From positions 35,589 to 99,588 of the forward strand of contig CAYFZH010000001.1 in the NCBI GenBank assembly GCA_964347785.1: a DNA stretch of 64,000 nt. Direction: 5' to 3'. The stretch is from an uncultured Candidatus Saccharibacteria bacterium. GTDB lineage: Bacteria > Patescibacteriota > Minisyncoccia > Phycocordibacterales > Zambryskibacteraceae. The position numbers and the translations under genes are program-made. Positions within the stretch are counted from its first letter, which is position 1, and the number at the start of each line of letters is the position of its first letter. Under the pieces are notes generated by a model. It saw only the letters and a program-made list of their open reading frames with translations. It was not told the origin of the DNA and did no database searches. This document shows, one piece after another, positions 2,935 through 50,000 of the stretch.

Positions 2935-3008
2935 AAAAATAGTCTATGTGTTAGTATCTACCTGTTCTATATACCCCCTATAGCCTAAGTGGCAGGGGAT
3001 TTACCTGT

Positions 3009-5914: not shown

Positions 5915-5941
5915 GAATCGAAGCGGTTGAAAATGTCTCTA

Positions 5942-5957
5942 TATAGTATATACTATA
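5942..5957. promoter_or_regulatory. Perfect 16-bp palindrome TATAGTATATACTATA in the divergent promoter region, overlapping the -10 box (TATAAT 5954..5959) of uvrC
   Basis: Seen directly in the sequence. It is a candidate operator or divergent promoter element between ORF 5648..5914 and uvrC. Confidence 0.35.
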
Positions 5958-5961
5958 ATAG

Positions 5962-7179
5962 ATGAAAAGTCAAGAGCTCAAGAATTTTAACTTACCAGAT
6001 GCGCCGGGGGTGTATTACTTCTTAGATAAAAAGGGGAAGATTTTGTATGTAGGCAAAGCAACTTCCTTGAAGGATAGGGTCAAGAGTTACTTCGCTCGAG
6101 ATATCTTGATGACACGTGGACCGAAGATCCAGAAGATGCTCGAGGATGCGGTGAGAGTCGAGTACAAGCAGACTGACTCGGTACTTGAGGCACTTATACT
6201 TGAGGCGAACGAGATCAAGCGACTTCAACCTCCTGCCAACTCCAAGGACAAAGATGACAAGAGTTACAACTTCGTCGTGATTACCAAAGAGGATTTCCCA
6301 CGGGTACTAATAAAACGCGGTAGAGAGTTAGAAACAAACACTATGATATATCATAGTGTCTTCGGTCCGTTCCCGAACTCGGGGGAACTCAAAGAGGCTT
6401 TGCGAATAGTCAGGAAGATTTTTCCCTTCAGAGATGAGAAGTGCAAGATCACTGATAAACACAAACCTTGCTTCAACGCACAGCTAGGTCTCTGTCCGGG
6501 ACCTTGTGCGGGATGGATTACGAAGACGGACTACAAGAAGCAGATTAGGAATATCAAAATGTTTCTCGAAGGCAAGAAGCCCAAGCTTATCAAGTCTCTA
6601 GAGCAAGAGATGAAAGCGTTTGCCAAGAAGCACGAGTTTGAGAAAGCGGATGAGATCAAGAAAAAGATTTTTGCCCTCGATCACATTCAAGATATCGCTT
6701 TGATAAAGGCTGACATTACGACCTACGACGAACGACCAACGACATTTAGAATTGAAGCTTATGACATCGCCCATCTCTCGGGTAAAGATGTGGTAGGGGT
6801 GATGACTGTGGTTGAGGATGGAGAGACTGCGAAGAGTCAGTATAGGAAATTTAAAATCAAGCTAGACAAGAACGACGATACCAAGAACCTGAGGGAAGTC
6901 CTCGAGAGACGTCTCAACCACAGAGAGTGGCGACTACCTGAGCTCATCGTTGTAGATGGAGGAGTGGGTCAGATCAACGTCGCGAAGAGTGTGCTCAAGG
7001 AGAGAGGTCTCAAGATTAATGTAGTCTCGGTGGTCAAGGATGATCGGCATAAGGCTCGAGAAATCTTGGACCTCAAGGATAAGACTCTCGAGAAAGCGAT
7101 CATCCTCGCCAATGCAGAAGCGCATCGCTTCGCCATCGGTTATCACAGGAAGCTCCGTGGGAAAGGATTTCGTATATAA
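5962..7179 (+). CDS. uvrC: Excinuclease ABC subunit C (UvrC), short form lacking the C-terminal (HhH)2 domain
   Basis: N-terminal GIY-YIG motif (GVYYF..GKILYVGKA), a Cys-rich segment, the UvrB-interaction region and an RNase H-like endonuclease domain. At 405 aa it is shorter than the typical ~600 aa. Confidence 0.85.
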   Translation: MKSQELKNFNLPDAPGVYYFLDKKGKILYVGKATSLKDRVKSYFARDILMTRGPKIQKMLEDAVRVEYKQTDSVLEALILEANEIKRLQPPANSKDKDDKSYNFVVITKEDFPRVLIKRGRELETNTMIYHSVFGPFPNSGELKEALRIVRKIFPFRDEKCKITDKHKPCFNAQLGLCPGPCAGWITKTDYKKQIRNIKMFLEGKKPKLIKSLEQEMKAFAKKHEFEKADEIKKKIFALDHIQDIALIKADITTYDERPTTFRIEAYDIAHLSGKDVVGVMTVVEDGETAKSQYRKFKIKLDKNDDTKNLREVLERRLNHREWRLPELIVVDGGVGQINVAKSVLKERGLKINVVSVVKDDRHKAREILDLKDKTLEKAIILANAEAHRFAIGYHRKLRGKGFRI

Positions 7180-9043: not shown

Positions 9044-9093
9044 CCACAAAATAAGAAAAGACTGGAGCAGTCCAGTCTTTTCTTATTTTGTGG
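9044..9093. terminator. Perfect 23-bp-arm palindrome (ccacaaaataagaaaagactgga-gcag-tccagtcttttcttattttgtgg), a bidirectional terminator abutting the 3' end of tRNA-Ala(UGC)
   Basis: Exact inverted repeat with a 4-nt loop. The outer arm includes the tRNA 3' end (..TGG). Confidence 0.6.
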
Positions 9094-9163
9094 ACCCTAC
9101 CGGGATCGAACCGGTCACCTCCTCATTGCAAATGAGGCGCTCTACCAGATGAGCTAAGGGCCC
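9091..9163 (-). tRNA. tRNA-Ala (anticodon UGC)
   Basis: 73-nt cloverleaf folded by hand: acceptor GGGCCCU/AGGGUCC with a G3:U70 pair, D-arm GCUC/GAGC containing GG, anticodon loop UUUGCAA, and T-loop UUCGAUC. CCA is not encoded. Confidence 0.85.
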
Positions 9164-9222
9164 TAAATTTCTAACCGATTGATTCTAGTATAAAAATGGA
9201 GCAAAATAAAGCCCTAATAAAA

Positions 9223-9293
9223 GGGCCCATAGTATAGTAGTAACACGCATCCATGGCATGGATGAGTCCGGAGTGCGATTCTCCGTGGGTCCA
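9223..9293 (+). tRNA. tRNA-Ala (anticodon GGC), noncanonical D- and T-loops
   Basis: 71 nt: acceptor GGGCCCA/UGGGUCC with G3:U70, and anticodon stem CAUCC/GGAUG with loop AUGGCAU. The D-loop lacks the conserved GG and the T-loop reads UGCGAUU (G at position 55). CCA is not encoded. Confidence 0.6.
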
Positions 9294-9317
9294 CAAAAGC
9301 GCGGGGCGCTTTTGTGG
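9291..9317 (+). terminator. Perfect palindrome ccacaaaagcgc-ggg-gcgcttttgtgg including the tRNA-Ala(GGC) 3' end
   Basis: 12-bp arms with a T-tract in the 3' arm. It shares the CCACAAAA/TTTTGTGG outer motif with the palindrome at 9044..9093. Confidence 0.5.
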
Positions 9318-9329
9318 CGTGTTCACAAG

Positions 9330-9405
9330 GGACGATTAGCTCAGTTGGTTAGAGCGTACGATTCACATTCGTAAGGTCACAGGTTCAATTCCTGTATCGT
9401 CCACC
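9330..9405 (+). tRNA. tRNA-Val (anticodon CAC)
   Basis: Acceptor GGACGAU/AUCGUCC fully paired, D-arm GCUC/GAGC with GG, anticodon loop UUCACAU, and T-loop UUCAAUU. Discriminator A followed by CC. Confidence 0.85.
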
Positions 9406-19607: not shown

Positions 19608-19652
19608 CACGGTATTGACATATAAGTAGTGTAATGATACAAATAAGATTAC

Positions 19653-20690
19653 ATGATAGAAAAAACAGCCAGCTTCAAACCGAAGGAAGCCACCAAGAAA
19701 CTCTTGGGCGTCCTCACTAAGCGTGCTCAGGACGTGATTGTCTCTCGCTATGGTCTCGGTTCCAAGGCCACTCGTCTCACTCTCGACGCTATCGGCAAGA
19801 AGTACAGCATCACTCGCGAGCGTGTCCGCCAGATCGAGAACCACTCTCTCGTCACCATCAGGAAGTCCAAGGCTTATAAGGACCTCGAACCCGTCTTTAC
19901 CGAACTCAAGGCAATACTCATCGAGCTTGGTGGTCTAGTCTCTGAGAAGGATCTCCTCAAGCACCTGAGCAAGGACGTCTCTACACAGAACCATTTCCAC
20001 TTCCTACTTGTCATCGGCGAAGAGTTCAAGAAGGAGAAGGAAGACGACGAGTTCAAGCACCGCTGGCACGTGGACCCACAACTTCAGGGCAAGATTGAGT
20101 CTGCTCTCCGCAAACTTTACTCCAAGCTCTCTGACGACGAACTCGTCGTAGAAGGTGATCTGATCGAGGACTTCCTCGAAGAGGTCAAGGATATGAATGA
20201 GAAGTACAAGAACGAGGAAGTGATCAAGCGTTGGCTCTCTATCTCACACAAGATTGGCAAGAACCCTCTAGGTGAGTGGGGCAAGACCTCTTCTCCAAAT
20301 GTGAATGCCAAGGGTATGCGTGACTACGCCTTCCTCGTCATCAGGAAGCACGGTTCCCCAATCCACTTCAAGGAAGTGGCGAAGGCTATCGGTCAGTATT
20401 TCAATAAAAAGGCTCACGTTGCCACTACTCACAACGAGCTGATCAAGGATCCACGCTTCGTCCTTGTAGGACGCGGTCTCTATGCACTTGCTGAGTGGGG
20501 TTATATGTCTGGGGTAGTTAAGGATGTCATCCGTAAGATCATCGACAAGGACGGTCCTCTCACCAAGGAGAAGATTATCGACAAGGTACTCAAGGAGCGT
20601 TATGTGAAGGAGAACACTATTCTCGTCAATCTCCAGAACCCAAAGTTCTTCAAGAAGGACAAGGAAGGCAGGTATTCCAACGCGAGCTAA
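19653..20690 (+). CDS. Sigma-70 region-4 HTH protein with a C-terminal HARE-HTH-like winged helix
   Basis: N-terminal region-4.2-like segment (ITRERVRQIENHSLVTIRKS). C-terminal segment (HFKEVAKAIG..FVLVGRGLYALAEWGY) resembles HARE-HTH. No sigma regions 2 or 3. Confidence 0.6.
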   Translation: MIEKTASFKPKEATKKLLGVLTKRAQDVIVSRYGLGSKATRLTLDAIGKKYSITRERVRQIENHSLVTIRKSKAYKDLEPVFTELKAILIELGGLVSEKDLLKHLSKDVSTQNHFHFLLVIGEEFKKEKEDDEFKHRWHVDPQLQGKIESALRKLYSKLSDDELVVEGDLIEDFLEEVKDMNEKYKNEEVIKRWLSISHKIGKNPLGEWGKTSSPNVNAKGMRDYAFLVIRKHGSPIHFKEVAKAIGQYFNKKAHVATTHNELIKDPRFVLVGRGLYALAEWGYMSGVVKDVIRKIIDKDGPLTKEKIIDKVLKERYVKENTILVNLQNPKFFKKDKEGRYSNAS

Positions 20691-46665: not shown

Positions 46666-47964
46666 ATGATAACTAGAACACAGGTCAAGGATATCTCGAA
46701 GGAAGCTGGCAAGGAGTGCTCTGTAGCCGGCTTCGTCCACGCACTCCGTGTGCAGTCGAAGATCGTCTTTATCGTCCTGCGAGACATTACAGGAGTAGTC
46801 CAAGTGGTGGTCACTGCGGACAACTCACAGTTCGAGATAGCGAAGTCTCTCACTCTCGAGTCTGTCATCCGTGTGACGGGTATGGTCAAGGAGTCCGCTC
46901 AGGCACCCGGAGGCTTCGAGATCGAGCCGGTGACATCTATAGAGATCCTCAGTGCATCCGCTCCAGAGCTCCCGATACCGGTCGTGGTGAAGGGGAACGA
47001 TGAGGAGACAGAGGCACCTACTCGCTTCGACTACCGCTGGTTAGATCTACGCAAGCCAGAGAAGACCAAGATATTCAAGGTCTGGACCGAGTTCGAGAAG
47101 GGTTGGCGTGAGTATTGGGACAAGAATAACTATATCCAACTCTACCCACCAGCCTTTATGTCCACACCATCCGAGAGTGGGGCAGATGTCTTCGAGGTGA
47201 AGTACTTCGACAGGAAGGCATACCTCGCTCAGTCTCCGCAGTTTTACAAACAGATGGCGCAGTCGGCAGGGCTCGAGAGAGTCTTCATGGTGGCACCAGT
47301 CTTCCGTGCGGAAGAGTCCTTTACCACACGACATATGACCGAGTTTACTGGCTGGGACTTCGAACTCTCATATATCGAGAACCACCATGACATCATGGAC
47401 GAAGAAGAGGGGATGATAGTCGCTGGGTTCGAGAGACTAGAGAAGATGTTCCCTGAGCTCAATATCACTGTACCTACTCAACCCTTCCCCCGCATCACCA
47501 TGCTTGAGGCGAAGCAAATCTTGTCGACACTCGGTGTCAACAGTCCAGAAGAGCACGATCTCTCTCCAGAAGAAGAGCGGGCCATATCGGAGTATGTGCA
47601 TAAGGAGCACAATCACGAGTTCGTCTTCATCACCGAGTATCATAAGTCGAAGAGTGCCTTCTACCATATGCGTCTCGAGGAAGGCTCTGACAGATCTCGT
47701 CGCGCAGACCTGCTCTACCGAGGGATCGAGGTAACTACTCTCGCTCAACGTGAGCACAGACCAGAGATTCTCGAGAAGCAAGCAGTAGAGAAGGGGATGA
47801 ATCTTGAGTCTCTCAAGGACTATCTCAACTTCTTCCGCTACGGCTGTCCTCCACACGGTGGTGCTGGAGTCGGTCCAGCAAGGTTTATCATGAAGATCCT
47901 CGACCTCTCAAACGTCCGCGAAGCGACGTACCTCCCAAGGGATGTGAAGAGGTTGAATCCGTAA
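46666..47964 (+). CDS. aspS: Class IIb aminoacyl-tRNA synthetase, short archaeal/eukaryal-type. Probably aspartyl-tRNA synthetase; AsnRS is not excluded.
   Basis: N-terminal OB anticodon-binding domain, QSPQFYKQ, motif 2 FRAEESFTTRHMTEFTGWDFE and motif 3 GGAGVGPARFIM. The D in ..GWDFE favours AspRS. Confidence 0.65.
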   Translation: MITRTQVKDISKEAGKECSVAGFVHALRVQSKIVFIVLRDITGVVQVVVTADNSQFEIAKSLTLESVIRVTGMVKESAQAPGGFEIEPVTSIEILSASAPELPIPVVVKGNDEETEAPTRFDYRWLDLRKPEKTKIFKVWTEFEKGWREYWDKNNYIQLYPPAFMSTPSESGADVFEVKYFDRKAYLAQSPQFYKQMAQSAGLERVFMVAPVFRAEESFTTRHMTEFTGWDFELSYIENHHDIMDEEEGMIVAGFERLEKMFPELNITVPTQPFPRITMLEAKQILSTLGVNSPEEHDLSPEEERAISEYVHKEHNHEFVFITEYHKSKSAFYHMRLEEGSDRSRRADLLYRGIEVTTLAQREHRPEILEKQAVEKGMNLESLKDYLNFFRYGCPPHGGAGVGPARFIMKILDLSNVREATYLPRDVKRLNP

Positions 47965-48006: not shown

Positions 48007-48381
48007 ATGAAGAAGGTTCCATATCCACATTCGTTTGAGGCTGGAACTGAATGGCAGGATGGCTATGTTCATCCAGAAGGGTTTAAAGTTAAGCTTAAAG
48101 CTCGTTTCCCAGACTGGTCTGGCTTACACGGACTTCTTGATAGTGAAGACAAGTGTGTGTGGGAGCTCCTTTGGATCTATCAAGGAAGACTCGGTACAAT
48201 CAAAGCTGAAGAAATTGTCGCTGCTGATGACAATGGCACCTTGAAGGAGATTGTCGCCAGAGTACGGGAAGCTCTTGAGCTTCACAACTGGCTCAACGAC
48301 CTTGAGAAGGAATTCTTCCCAGAAGAAATCGCTCGTCGTGAGGAGCGAAGGAAAAGAGATCTCGAGAGCTGGTTTTATTAG
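48007..48381 (+). CDS. Hypothetical protein (124 aa)
   Basis: SD AAGGAGGTG upstream. No known motif. Confidence 0.45.
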   Translation: MKKVPYPHSFEAGTEWQDGYVHPEGFKVKLKARFPDWSGLHGLLDSEDKCVWELLWIYQGRLGTIKAEEIVAADDNGTLKEIVARVREALELHNWLNDLEKEFFPEEIARREERRKRDLESWFY

Positions 48382-48407
48382 CAACAACTGAATCATCCTA
48401 TAAATCA

Positions 48408-48429
48408 GCGCCCGGCTTATGCCGGGCGC
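48408..48429. terminator. Hairpin gcgcccggc-ttat-gccgggcgc between convergent genes
   Basis: 9-bp GC stem with U-rich flanks on the minus side. Confidence 0.5.
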
Positions 48430-48447
48430 GTTGTAGTCTCACTGGGT

Positions 48448-48690
48448 TTAGGTTGAGCGTACCTCTGTTGGTATTCTCCTCGACACGAAGGCGTGGTCCA
48501 GTGGCACGATATATGCCTGCTGTTCCGTCCTCCTGTCGGAGGACTCTCTTTTGAATTGCCCATGAGAGTGCTCGGTGAATCCTCTCCGAGTCAGTTCGTT
48601 ACGGGCTACTTGCTCGCTACCGTATGGGCCAAAATTGCCATCTTCTCTTGTAGAGAAACTATAAGTGGTGATCTGCACACAGACTCTCAT
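48448..48690 (-). CDS. GC-rich small hypothetical protein (80 aa)
   Basis: Strong SD GGAGGTGG 5 nt upstream of the ATG at 48690. About 58% GC. The ORF-track start at 48738 is an upstream extension. Confidence 0.4.
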   Translation of the reverse strand: MRVCVQITTYSFSTREDGNFGPYGSEQVARNELTRRGFTEHSHGQFKRESSDRRTEQQAYIVPLDHAFVSRRIPTEVRST

Positions 48691-48771
48691 GGTGCCACCT
48701 CCGCTGGATAATGTAACACCAGATATTCTATAAAACAAACTAGGTTATATTAAAATTATTTGTAAGATAAT

Positions 48772-48800
48772 TTGACTTGTTACTATAAATAGTGTATAAA
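48772..48800 (+). promoter_or_regulatory. Sigma-70-like promoter TTGACT-17-TATAAA
   Basis: Consensus hexamers with 17-nt spacing in an AT-rich intergenic region. Followed by TGTGCTATG. Confidence 0.5.
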
Positions 48801-48806
48801 TGTGCT

Positions 48807-48985
48807 ATGCCTAGAGCATATTACAGTGCACATATGAATTCCTGCGGGCTCGGTCAGAAGATCGACGCCTCTTTTGCCGTATCTACCCAGAACGGATTCA
48901 TATTGTGTTCAGCTGTAATTGTCTAATCTCTCTAACTAAAAAGAATTTGGAAAACTGGAGCTGAACAGAAGCTTCAGTTTTTGTT
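48807..48985 (+). ncRNA. Roughly 180-nt promoter-to-terminator transcript without an ORF: candidate sRNA or cis-regulatory attenuator leader of the GNAT gene
   Basis: No ORF of 30 aa or more. Long-range helix atatgaattcc/ggattcatat, and an intrinsic terminator (ctgaa..ttcag + TTTTTGTTT at 48958..48985) about 40 nt upstream of the GNAT start, with no promoter between them. Confidence 0.4.
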
Positions 48986-49024
48986 TAGCAGTTGTTCTTT
49001 CACTTCAACACAGAGGATACGAAG

Positions 49025-49594
49025 ATGGTGACAGGAAAAGTGGTTTTTCTCCATGGTAAGAATGTGGTCCTACGTCCGGTTGAGAAGAGTGACGTGCCGA
49101 ACCTTGTCAGGTGGATCAACGATCCTGATGTGCGGCGGTTCCTCAATAACTCCTTTCCTCAGAATGAGCGTGACGAGGAAGAGTGGGTGAGTTCTCTGAG
49201 CAAGAAGACAAATAACATCGTCTTTGCTTTGGAGACTCTCTCTGGCTCTCCGATCGGAGTTATGGGACTTCACAACATCAAGTGGCGTGACGGTGTGGCG
49301 ACCACAGGAGCGTTTATCGGGGAGAAGGAGTATTGGGGCAAGGGTCTGGGGTCTGAGGCTAAACTGCTTCTCCTCGACTACGCCTTCAACACTCTGAATC
49401 TCAGGAAGATTTGCTCCGATGTTATCGCCTTCAACGAGAGGAGTTACAAGTACAGTCTCAAGTGTGGCTACAAGGAAGAGGCGAGACTCAAGTCCCACAT
49501 CTTCCGCGCTGGTCGCTACTGGGACATGATCCTCTTGGCAGTCTTCCGCGAAGACTTCGAGTCTGTTTGGGAGAAGTATCAGAAGGGAATCTAG
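49025..49594 (+). CDS. GNAT-family N-acetyltransferase (RimJ/RimL-like)
   Basis: GNAT motif A (IGEKEYWGKGLGSEAKLLLLDYAF). The ATG at 49025 has an AGAGGA SD-like sequence upstream. The ORF-track TTG at 48992 is an extension. Confidence 0.75.
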   Translation: MVTGKVVFLHGKNVVLRPVEKSDVPNLVRWINDPDVRRFLNNSFPQNERDEEEWVSSLSKKTNNIVFALETLSGSPIGVMGLHNIKWRDGVATTGAFIGEKEYWGKGLGSEAKLLLLDYAFNTLNLRKICSDVIAFNERSYKYSLKCGYKEEARLKSHIFRAGRYWDMILLAVFREDFESVWEKYQKGI

Positions 49595-49600
49595 TGTGCA

Positions 49601-49637
49601 AAAGCCTGTGGTCTACACGACCACAGGCTTTTTTATA
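49601..49637 (+). terminator. Strong rho-independent terminator aaagcctgtggtc-tacac-gaccacaggcttt followed by TTTAT
   Basis: 13-bp stem followed by a T-tract after the GNAT gene. Confidence 0.8.
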
Positions 49638-49675
49638 TTATATAAAAGAAAAGGACCACCCTGGAAAGAAAAACT

Positions 49676-49872
49676 TCCATAGGTGGCCCCGCGAACGAGC
49701 GAACGAGCGAACGAGATTGAGACGAAGGACGAGCCCCCGGTCCGCGCGAGAGGTCCGCGGGGACCGAACAGTGTCGGCGCCACGGTGAGCTACTCGCCGC
49801 GAACCGGGGTAAGTCAGGTGGAGAGGCTATGCCGTCGAATGAATCACCCGGCGGACACGCCCCGTCGCCACC
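49676..49872. other. GC-rich (about 65%) non-coding island of about 200 nt with an 8-nt x3 tandem repeat (gcgaacga, 49691..49714) and several GC hairpins. Unknown element.
   Basis: Composition shift against about 35% GC flanks. Contains the direct repeat ggtccgcg x2 and long-range complementarity ggccccgcg/cgcggggacc. Only junk-like ORFs overlap it. Confidence 0.3.
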
Positions 49873-50000
49873 CTTATCTATATCCTATCATACATCACAT
49901 TTTTTGTCAAGCATTTGTTATATATCATCTAGAAATGGCTCAGATTAGCCCTCCTTGAGACTTGGGGGATAGAGGAAGAAAAGCTATAATACTAGGACTT

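Follow-up and report, generated by a model that had tools for sequence, protein, structure and literature searches.

A probable leader-peptide transcription attenuator upstream of GNAT acetyltransferase genes in Patescibacteria

Introduction

What decides whether transcription reaches the GNAT acetyltransferase gene of an uncultured Candidatus Saccharibacteria bacterium, when an intrinsic terminator stands between this gene and its promoter? The locus belongs to a 64,000-nt stretch of contig CAYFZH010000001.1, hereafter the window, to which all coordinates refer. An earlier note on this DNA had described the segment between promoter and terminator as about 180 nt without an open reading frame (ORF), and had proposed either a ligand- or tRNA-responsive attenuator or an independent small RNA (sRNA). 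Based on sequence comparison, we propose that the region is probably a ribosome-dependent leader-peptide transcription attenuator with its sensor ORF on a leaderless mRNA, and most likely not a ligand-binding riboswitch. To our knowledge, almost nothing is known about gene regulation in the mostly uncultured bacteria of the candidate phyla radiation (CPR, Patescibacteria).

Results and discussion

Promoter, terminator and leader ORF

The outer parts of the layout given in the earlier note are present in the window (Table 1). Its TTGACT-17-TATAAA promoter can be read directly from the sequence, and the T-tract of its terminator ends 38 nt before the start codon of GNAT. The note had also stated that no other promoter precedes the gene; in agreement, a consensus scan of the + strand between 48800 and 49025 returned no further promoter-like site at the sensitivity of the scan, which demands a T at position 6 of the -10 element and hence skips the TATAAA of the leader promoter itself. 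A 10-bp long-range helix noted earlier (ATATGAATTCC 48832-48842 and GGATTCATAT 48894-48903) exists as well, but proved to be merely the middle of a longer hairpin, here called P1 (48812-48847/48886-48925). The description of the transcript as free of ORFs was wrong. An ATG at 48807 opens an ORF of 39 codons that covers the whole long hairpin, and one metagenome gene caller had already annotated this ORF (L001, 2783-2902).

Related loci were collected by GNAT-anchored scans. One genome per species yielded 32 loci and metagenomes yielded 80 more, at a GNAT identity of 48-67%. Since all of these loci were found through GNAT, the scope of the comparisons below is GNAT-upstream regions. In an ORF-blind test on 69 distinct regions of this kind from Patescibacteria, the best promoter was picked first, at a threshold of at least 9 of 12 consensus positions. 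Such a promoter, with a TTGACA-like -35 element and 16-18 nt spacing, was present in 52 of the 69 regions. An ATG follows the -10 element at a distance of 3-11 nt in 43 of the 52, and this distance is 6-9 nt in 42 of these 43 promoter-anchored leaders, as expected for a transcript start at or beside the A of the ATG. Frame 0 remains open for at least 25 codons in all 43 leaders (median 39 codons), compared to medians of 7-8 codons for frames +1 and +2. A MAFFT alignment of 32 leaders that was made without fitting to structure (A3) has the ATG as the only invariant feature of the 5' end, with columns 1-2 of the alignment invariant. The frame is also kept across a 9-nt indel that separates the window from the related locus L004. 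Altogether, the leader mRNA is predicted to start at or near ATG 48807 and thus to be leaderless. A start codon at the predicted transcription start, followed by an ORF that is always open, points to the ribosome as the sensor.

The same spacing between promoter and start codon was encountered elsewhere in the window, at two full-length genes of 405 and 345 aa (ATGs at 5962 and 19653). In both promoter-start regions (5927-5964 and 19615-19655) the ATG lies 7-9 nt past the -10 element, which leaves no room for a Shine-Dalgarno sequence. Leaderless initiation may therefore be normal or common in this genome.

Mutually exclusive helices

The leader has a strong predicted fold. For positions 48803-48985 the folding z-score is -4.76, and none of 200 shuffled sequences folded as well. 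The switch depends on segment 2, the 3' half of the 3' strand of P1, which has two possible partners, segment 1 (the 5' strand of P1) and the 5' arm and loop of the terminator (segment 3). The core of the latter pairing joins TGTTCAGCT (48906-48914) to AGCTGAACA (48959-48967). When 48890-48990 was folded without segment 1, an antiterminator hairpin at 48904-48969 was obtained with -19.6 kcal/mol, compared to -14.5 kcal/mol for the terminator; with segment 1 included in the fold of the window sequence, segment 2 is captured by P1, which spans the ORF region and folds at -40.5 kcal/mol.

Each helix was tested column by column in alignment A3. For P1 and the terminator taken together, 72.6% of the cells are paired, compared to 38-47% when the partner strand is slid by 1-3 columns, and changes on both sides were found in 26 of 32 pairs (17 of 20 for P1 alone). 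None of 500 shuffles reached the observed values, although the related sequences are not independent, so that shuffle counts overstate significance, and the slid-partner controls and both-sided changes are the stronger evidence. The terminator stem is 87-93% paired over the 32 leaders and shows compensatory changes. The antiterminator has 79.6% of its cells paired versus 35-41% with slid partners, and both-sided changes in 13 of 17 pairs. For instance, columns 130:223 are C-G in 23 leaders, U-A in nine and unpaired in none, columns 125:228 are divided between U-A (12) and C-G (11), and columns 134:219 between A-U and G-C (11 each). Complementarity of segments 2 and 3 is kept even between leaders with unrelated terminator sequences, at a median z-score of -3.1 against dinucleotide shuffles and with 30 of 41 leaders below -2.

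Thus the comparison of GNAT-upstream regions, a check named in the earlier note, found the terminator, the antiterminator and the anti-antiterminator all conserved and covarying. P1, the antiterminator and the terminator are predicted to be mutually exclusive helices, each of which has covariation support. The covarying switch helices and the lack of a promoter hit between terminator and gene also bear out the earlier proposal that GNAT expression depends on read-through of the terminator.

Distribution of the leader

The layout recurs among relatives of the window. All eight Patescibacteria loci from the genome scan have a TTGACA-type promoter, an ATG near the -10 element, an ORF of 30-42 codons, a terminator, a Shine-Dalgarno sequence and GNAT, in this order. 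The closest GNAT-bearing contigs are metagenome-assembled genomes titled as Patescibacteria, Saccharibacteria, Parcubacteria, Nomurabacteria or Paceibacterota. When the 3' half of the leader was used as a sequence profile, the main form turned up immediately before GNAT in 53 of 80 eligible loci, and once in the window, at 48902-48985. By eye, about 15 further loci carry variant leaders with other terminator sequences. The leader layout was not seen upstream of more distant GNAT homologues from Chloroflexi, Firmicutes and archaea. L004 and the window share just 67% identity in their GNAT proteins, yet their switch strands and terminators are nearly identical in nucleotides, with a fully identical block of 28 nt at the 3' strand of P1 and its switch strand. 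As judged by these comparisons, the recurrence of the layout before orthologous GNAT genes in dozens of diverged genomes is more than chance, and the linkage of leader and GNAT is strict within the GNAT-anchored set.

Table 1. Features of the GNAT leader region in the window
Feature	Coordinates	Strand	Description	Basis
Sigma-70-type promoter	48772-48800	+	-35 TTGACT 48772-48777; 17-nt spacer; -10 TATAAA 48795-48800	Read directly
Leader ORF	48807-48926	+	39 codons, MPRAYYSAHMNSCGLGQKIDASFAVSTQNGFILCSAVIV; stop TAA 48924-48926; ATG 6 nt past the -10 element; no Shine-Dalgarno sequence	
Segment 1	48812-48847	+	5' strand of long hairpin P1 (anti-antiterminator); includes ATATGAATTCC	Pairs in the minimum free energy (MFE) fold; covariation
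Inner hairpin	48851-48879	+	Tip of P1; variable region, length and sequence differ among lineages	Fold; gappy, poorly conserved columns 40-112
3' strand of P1	48886-48925	+	Contains the switch strand, segment 2, as its 3' half (about 48904-48931)	
Segment 3	48942-48969	+	Antiterminator partner of segment 2; overlaps terminator 5' arm and loop	
Intrinsic terminator	48951-48986	+	Stem 48951-48962/48970-48981 (AAAACTGGAGCT/AGCTTCAGTTTT, 48951-48981); loop GAACAGA; T-tract TTTTTGTTT 48978-48986	
Segment 5	48982-48989	+	TGTTTAGC, directly after the T-tract; complementary to GCTGAACA 48960-48967 (terminator upper 5' arm and loop)	
GUUCUUU(C/A)AC motif	48994-49003	+	GUUCUUUCAC, in the 5' untranslated region (UTR) of GNAT	Conserved in alignments A3 and half3
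GNAT Shine-Dalgarno and gene	49013-49594	+	GAGGA 49013-49017; ATG 49025 to stop 49594; 189 aa; Acetyltransf_3	

Proposed mechanism and its polarity

In the proposed mechanism, transcription would begin at or within a few nucleotides of ATG 48807, and a ribosome would load on the 5' AUG, open P1 and depart at the stop codon just past the hairpin. With the ribosome gone or never loaded, P1 would form and sequester segment 2; the terminator would then form, transcription would stop at about 48986 and GNAT would be off. Arrest of a ribosome within segment 1 or the variable middle would prevent P1 from forming, and the freed segment 2 would pair with nascent segment 3, giving an antiterminator and read-through into GNAT. 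We infer that the leader ORF is translated. If translation terminated inside the hairpin, read-through would be constitutive, and the ORF must therefore end outside P1. Throughout the leaders the ORF spans both P1 strands, and in 31 of the 32 its stop codon coincides with or lies past the 3' end of P1, 4-45 nt after segment 2 (median 15 nt). The median distance is 27 nt from stop codon to terminator and 44 nt from terminator to the GNAT ATG.

The helix and ORF evidence would fit equally well a switch of opposite polarity, in which active translation keeps P1 open and causes read-through, failed initiation leads to P1 and the terminator, and GNAT reports the capacity for leaderless translation. 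At the median stop position a terminating ribosome would miss the core of segment 2 in most lineages, and it could block the foot of P1 and leave segment 2 free for the antiterminator. However, a stop codon at or beyond the end of P1 in nearly all leaders also suits exit of the ribosome and re-forming of P1, which is far more stable than the antiterminator (-40.5 versus -19.6 kcal/mol) and whose strands are made before segment 3. Moreover, the characterised attenuators of similar layout, namely trp, erm and the upstream ORF (uORF) of whiB7, respond to ribosome stalling. We thus consider the opposite polarity unlikely.

Riboswitch interpretation

A metabolite or ion riboswitch, in which P1 would close an aptamer and a ligand would stabilise P1 and favour the terminator, is very unlikely in our judgement. 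Such an element could account for the strong fold (z = -4.76), for P1, antiterminator and terminator as a typical expression platform, and for the position upstream of an enzyme gene. However, the interior of P1 varies among lineages in both sequence and length, with ORFs of 26-52 codons, and A3 shows there no invariant unpaired nucleotides that would mark an aptamer core; conservation is confined to the ATG, the switch strand (segment 2) and the terminator. Searches with Rfam 15 gave no match at the gathering score in the leader, nor any at E <=10 on 48300-49100; the matches obtained were limited to tRNAs and chance similarities. Ligand sensing would also leave unexplained why the ATG at the predicted transcript start is invariant and why the ORF is open in 43 of 43 leaders. 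The ligand- or tRNA-responsive riboswitch proposed in the earlier note is hence not borne out, with neither an Rfam or T-box match nor an aptamer core, and an ORF in their place. Sensing of tRNA by a T-box was rejected separately. No T-box motif occurs in the window or in 15 related loci, for which the search at Rfam gathering scores returned no cis-regulatory family, T-box (RF00230) included.

Constraint on the leader peptide

If the leader were instead an independent small gene or sRNA, its 39-aa product or its terminated RNA of about 180 nt would act in trans and read-through into GNAT would be incidental. The conserved ORF is compatible with this idea, as is a semi-conserved in-frame Gly-x-hydrophobic motif in the middle of the peptide. 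Attenuator-derived sRNAs and leader peptides with roles in trans are known from rnTrpL/peTrpL (PMC6614838, PMC7298713). The ratio of nonsynonymous to synonymous change (pN/pS) of the leader ORF ranges from 0.17 to 1.1 across pairs, a mixed picture confounded by RNA structure; some pairs fall well below 1, as would suit a functional product, with the lowest value for L006 and L080, whereas the window and L004 give 1.03. Homologous nucleotides of segment 2 (GTTCAGCTGTAAT in the window, ATTTAGCCGTGAT in the main lineage) are read in different frames, encoding CSAVI in one and FSRD in the other, so that lineages differ in the reading frame of the C-terminal part of the peptide.

The leader peptides had no Pfam family match, no recognisable arrest motif and no Cys tract. 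A profile of 35 leader peptides searched against 5.8 billion proteins retrieved a single match, again with GNAT next door; this search says little about other gene contexts, because ORFs so short are seldom called. Weak peptide constraint and the frame differences in segment 2 suggest that translation itself was selected: the apparent targets of selection are the RNA helices and a frame that stays open for translation, and not the protein product. Covariation of the antiterminator further indicates a regulated terminator, and an element met only before this GNAT family in the GNAT-anchored loci, and once in the window, would leave its strict linkage to GNAT unexplained under a function in trans. 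We therefore regard an independent small gene or sRNA, although conceivable for the terminated RNA, as slightly harder still to credit than a riboswitch. Least credible of all is antitermination by a protein or tRNA (T-box, PyrR, TRAP or LicT type) on the same helices, although these could serve any factor able to stabilise or disrupt P1: no T-box or other cis-regulatory family was matched in Rfam, P1 has no conserved repeat or binding motif, no conserved regulator gene neighbours the loci, and the ORF is left unexplained.

Several observations weigh against the preferred interpretation, a ribosome-dependent leader-peptide attenuator. The evidence for where the transcript starts, for translation of the ORF and for termination comes entirely from the DNA sequence, and our literature search found no paper on CPR promoters or leaderless initiation. 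The polarity of the switch, with stalling leading to read-through, follows from analogy to trp- and erm-type systems and from relative helix stabilities, and is not fixed by the sequence. A classic run of regulatory codons is absent, and the sole codon to recur, Asn at codons 9-10, is itself base-paired in the RNA. The lower stem of P1 is just 56% paired in the unfitted alignment A3, in part due to misalignment. By eye, about 12 of the 80 orthologous GNAT loci have no leader at all. Finally, segment 5 and the GUUCUUU motif are conserved yet play no role in the attenuator model.

Candidate signals and the identity of GNAT

Candidates for the signal that stalls the ribosome include general translation stress or antibiotics, a shortage of Asn- or Asp-tRNA, and polyamines. 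Polyamines are listed because the GNAT protein is closest to SpeG. Its profile matches are led by SpeG (E 3.5e-23), followed by AAC(6') (1.7e-14) and then by RimJ and MccE (5.7e-11), and the protein falls below every NCBIfam equivalog cut-off. A weak match to the NCBIfam model for isoleucyl-tRNA synthetase (IleRS) with a GNAT domain (E 2.5e-7) is far below its cut-off as well. A MccE-like identity was rejected, as MccE was found by profile only and much more weakly than SpeG.

Asn accounts for 8.0% of leader residues, compared to 2.6% off-frame and 5.5% in GNAT. Among the codons of the peptide, conservation is highest for an Asn at position 9 or 10, seen in 29 of 42 leaders and exchanged for Asp in a few; 38 of the 42 have one of these two residues within codons 7-14. 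This position, in segment 1, is right for a sensor codon, since a stall at a hungry codon there would open P1. However, the AAUA containing the Asn codon sits in covarying pairs with segment 2 and tandem codon runs are absent; RNA pairing alone can thus explain the Asn enrichment.

Toxic mimics of aspartyl-adenylate, processed microcin C among them, are acetylated by GNATs of the MccE/RimL type. Detoxification of these mimics has been described for such enzymes (PMC4010828, PMC3817062). The gene for aspartyl-tRNA synthetase (AspRS) is located at 46666-47964, about 1 kb upstream of GNAT, and its product passes the NCBIfam cut-off for non-discriminating aspartate--tRNA(Asn) ligase, so that it probably serves both tRNA-Asp and tRNA-Asn. 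In several CPR lineages, the window included, homologues of this GNAT and AspRS lie 0.2-1 kb apart. In three Chloroflexi loci GNAT homologues directly follow an archaeal-type non-discriminating AspRS, and in one archaeal locus a GNAT follows what by eye is an apparent IleRS C-terminus. This gene neighbourhood (L017, L018 and L020 at about 2975-3005, L014 at about 2350, L038/L039, L004/L036, L111 and the window) suggests a functional link between GNAT and aminoacyl-tRNA synthetase (aaRS) genes. It is conceivable, though we think it unlikely, that the leader senses decoding of Asn or Asp and that GNAT is an inducible antidote to AspRS inhibitors; if so, the leader would serve as a codon-level alarm against attack by aaRS inhibitors. 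An alternative reading is a nascent-peptide loop that would sense polyamines and control a SpeG-like enzyme.

Additional conserved elements and neighbouring features

Two conserved elements lie beyond the switch (Table 1). For segment 5, the longest run of complementarity to the upper terminator arm and loop averages 8.0 nt, versus 5.2 nt in shuffled sequences, and the duplex has -11.3 versus -6.1 kcal/mol, with z-scores below -2 in 20 of 32 leaders. The complementarity covaries across lineages and tolerates G-U pairs. Since the changes are compatible with G-U pairing, they point to pairing at the RNA level, on the + strand.

The GUUCUUU motif is complementary to AAAGAAU at 48940-48946 in the spacer, a pairing that was judged by per-sequence folding, as the spacer does not align. 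In the MFE folds of many relatives the motif pairs with the GNAT Shine-Dalgarno sequence, although not clearly so in the window. It may thus act as an anti-Shine-Dalgarno sequence, which hints at a second, translational layer of control. Two orthologues that lack the attenuator (L065 and L107) have a promoter directly before a motif resembling GTTCTTAAA or GCTCTTTTTAAAA and a Shine-Dalgarno sequence; retention of the motif in these loci indicates that it belongs to the 5' UTR of GNAT proper and not to the attenuator.

On the minus strand, divergent from the leader promoter, lies an 80-aa gene (48448-48690) with the ribosome-binding site (RBS) GGAGGTG, whose sole match is a weak one to DUF6316, below the cut-off. 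A GC hairpin at 48408-48429 resembles a bidirectional terminator common to this gene and to a 124-aa gene at 48007-48381. Downstream, a GC-rich island at 49596-49876 separates the GNAT stop codon from scpA. This island, on the minus strand, is served by a strong sigma-70-like promoter (49910..49882, TTGACA-17-TAGGAT with TG), contains a bidirectional terminator (49600-49632) and three tandem GAACGAGC repeats, and its RNA folds at -130.9 kcal/mol (z = -6.0). For 49596-49876, Rfam gave only a sub-threshold match to the trpB motif (E 0.055), and neither a tRNA nor a tmRNA was detected by ARAGORN. The island is a candidate for an unannotated structured RNA of about 280 nt. The only Rfam matches at gathering level in the window are three tRNA genes, clustered on both strands at 9091-9403.

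Significance

The GNAT leader represents a widespread, covariation-supported cis-regulatory family over several CPR groups that is absent from Rfam. It would be the first well-supported family of this kind for CPR bacteria, and it offers a pointer to the function of GNAT. The leader suggests that these bacteria use leaderless translation and ribosome-mediated attenuation, and it flags a conserved GNAT that would be switched on under some translational stress, which provides a lead to antibiotic, polyamine or aaRS-inhibitor physiology. As a compact natural element, it may also serve as a sensor of translation state. For annotation, leader ORFs of 30-50 codons should not be called hypothetical proteins, nor should the region be classed as a riboswitch.

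Comparison with known systems

Our literature search found no description of the GNAT leader element or of attenuators in CPR bacteria. Among known systems, the mycobacterial "Cys ribulon" consists of leaderless polycysteine short ORFs, on which a stalled ribosome disrupts an inhibitory duplex and turns on the downstream gene (bioRxiv 10.1101/834739). The likeness to the GNAT leader lies in a sensor ORF at the 5' end of the transcript, here predicted, and in activation of the gene by stalling, here proposed. In contrast, the mycobacterial attenuators sequester the RBS of the downstream gene and use polycysteine, whereas the GNAT leader, from another phylum, has an intrinsic terminator with a covarying antiterminator and no Cys tract.

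In the ermC/ermB, msrD, yxjB/tlrB, whiB7 and toiL systems, a stress or resistance gene is freed from premature termination or from sequestration when a ribosome arrests on a uORF, and the peptides of these uORFs are often only loosely conserved. The operon controlled by toiL also includes a GNAT gene, yjhQ. Attenuation by a uORF has been described for the msrD leader (PMC10314930), yxjB/tlrB (PMC6851288), whiB7 (PMC10274678) and toiL before topAI-yjhQ (PMC12121999). These uORFs are generally led by a Shine-Dalgarno sequence, and several systems act via Rho or RBS sequestration, in contrast to the predicted leaderless ORF and the intrinsic terminator of the GNAT leader. By profile, the nearest match of GNAT is SpeG and not a known resistance enzyme.

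The leader ORFs of SpeFL and TnaC, which respond to ornithine and tryptophan, respectively, encode highly conserved arrest peptides and act through Rho-dependent termination. As proposed for the GNAT leader, an ORF of about 25-40 codons controls premature termination of a gene of small-molecule metabolism, and this likeness would fit feedback control of a SpeG-like polyamine acetyltransferase. However, the GNAT leader peptide is poorly conserved and its terminator is intrinsic.

The classical trp, his, leu and ilv attenuators of Proteobacteria and Actinobacteria share with the GNAT leader a short leader ORF, three exclusive helices (1:2, 2:3 and 3:4) and an intrinsic terminator that immediately precedes the regulated gene. 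In these attenuators the position of the ribosome selects the fold, as is proposed for the GNAT leader. They differ in several respects: the GNAT leader ORF is predicted to be leaderless and has no Shine-Dalgarno sequence, it crosses both segments 1 and 2 and ends past the hairpin, whereas a classical ORF ends between them, it has no tandem codon run, and segment 5 and the GUUCUUU motif are added. The target is a GNAT acetyltransferase and not an amino-acid biosynthesis operon. Despite these differences, the GNAT leader has the structural parts of a leader-peptide attenuator, namely an ORF, a terminator, an antiterminator and an anti-antiterminator.

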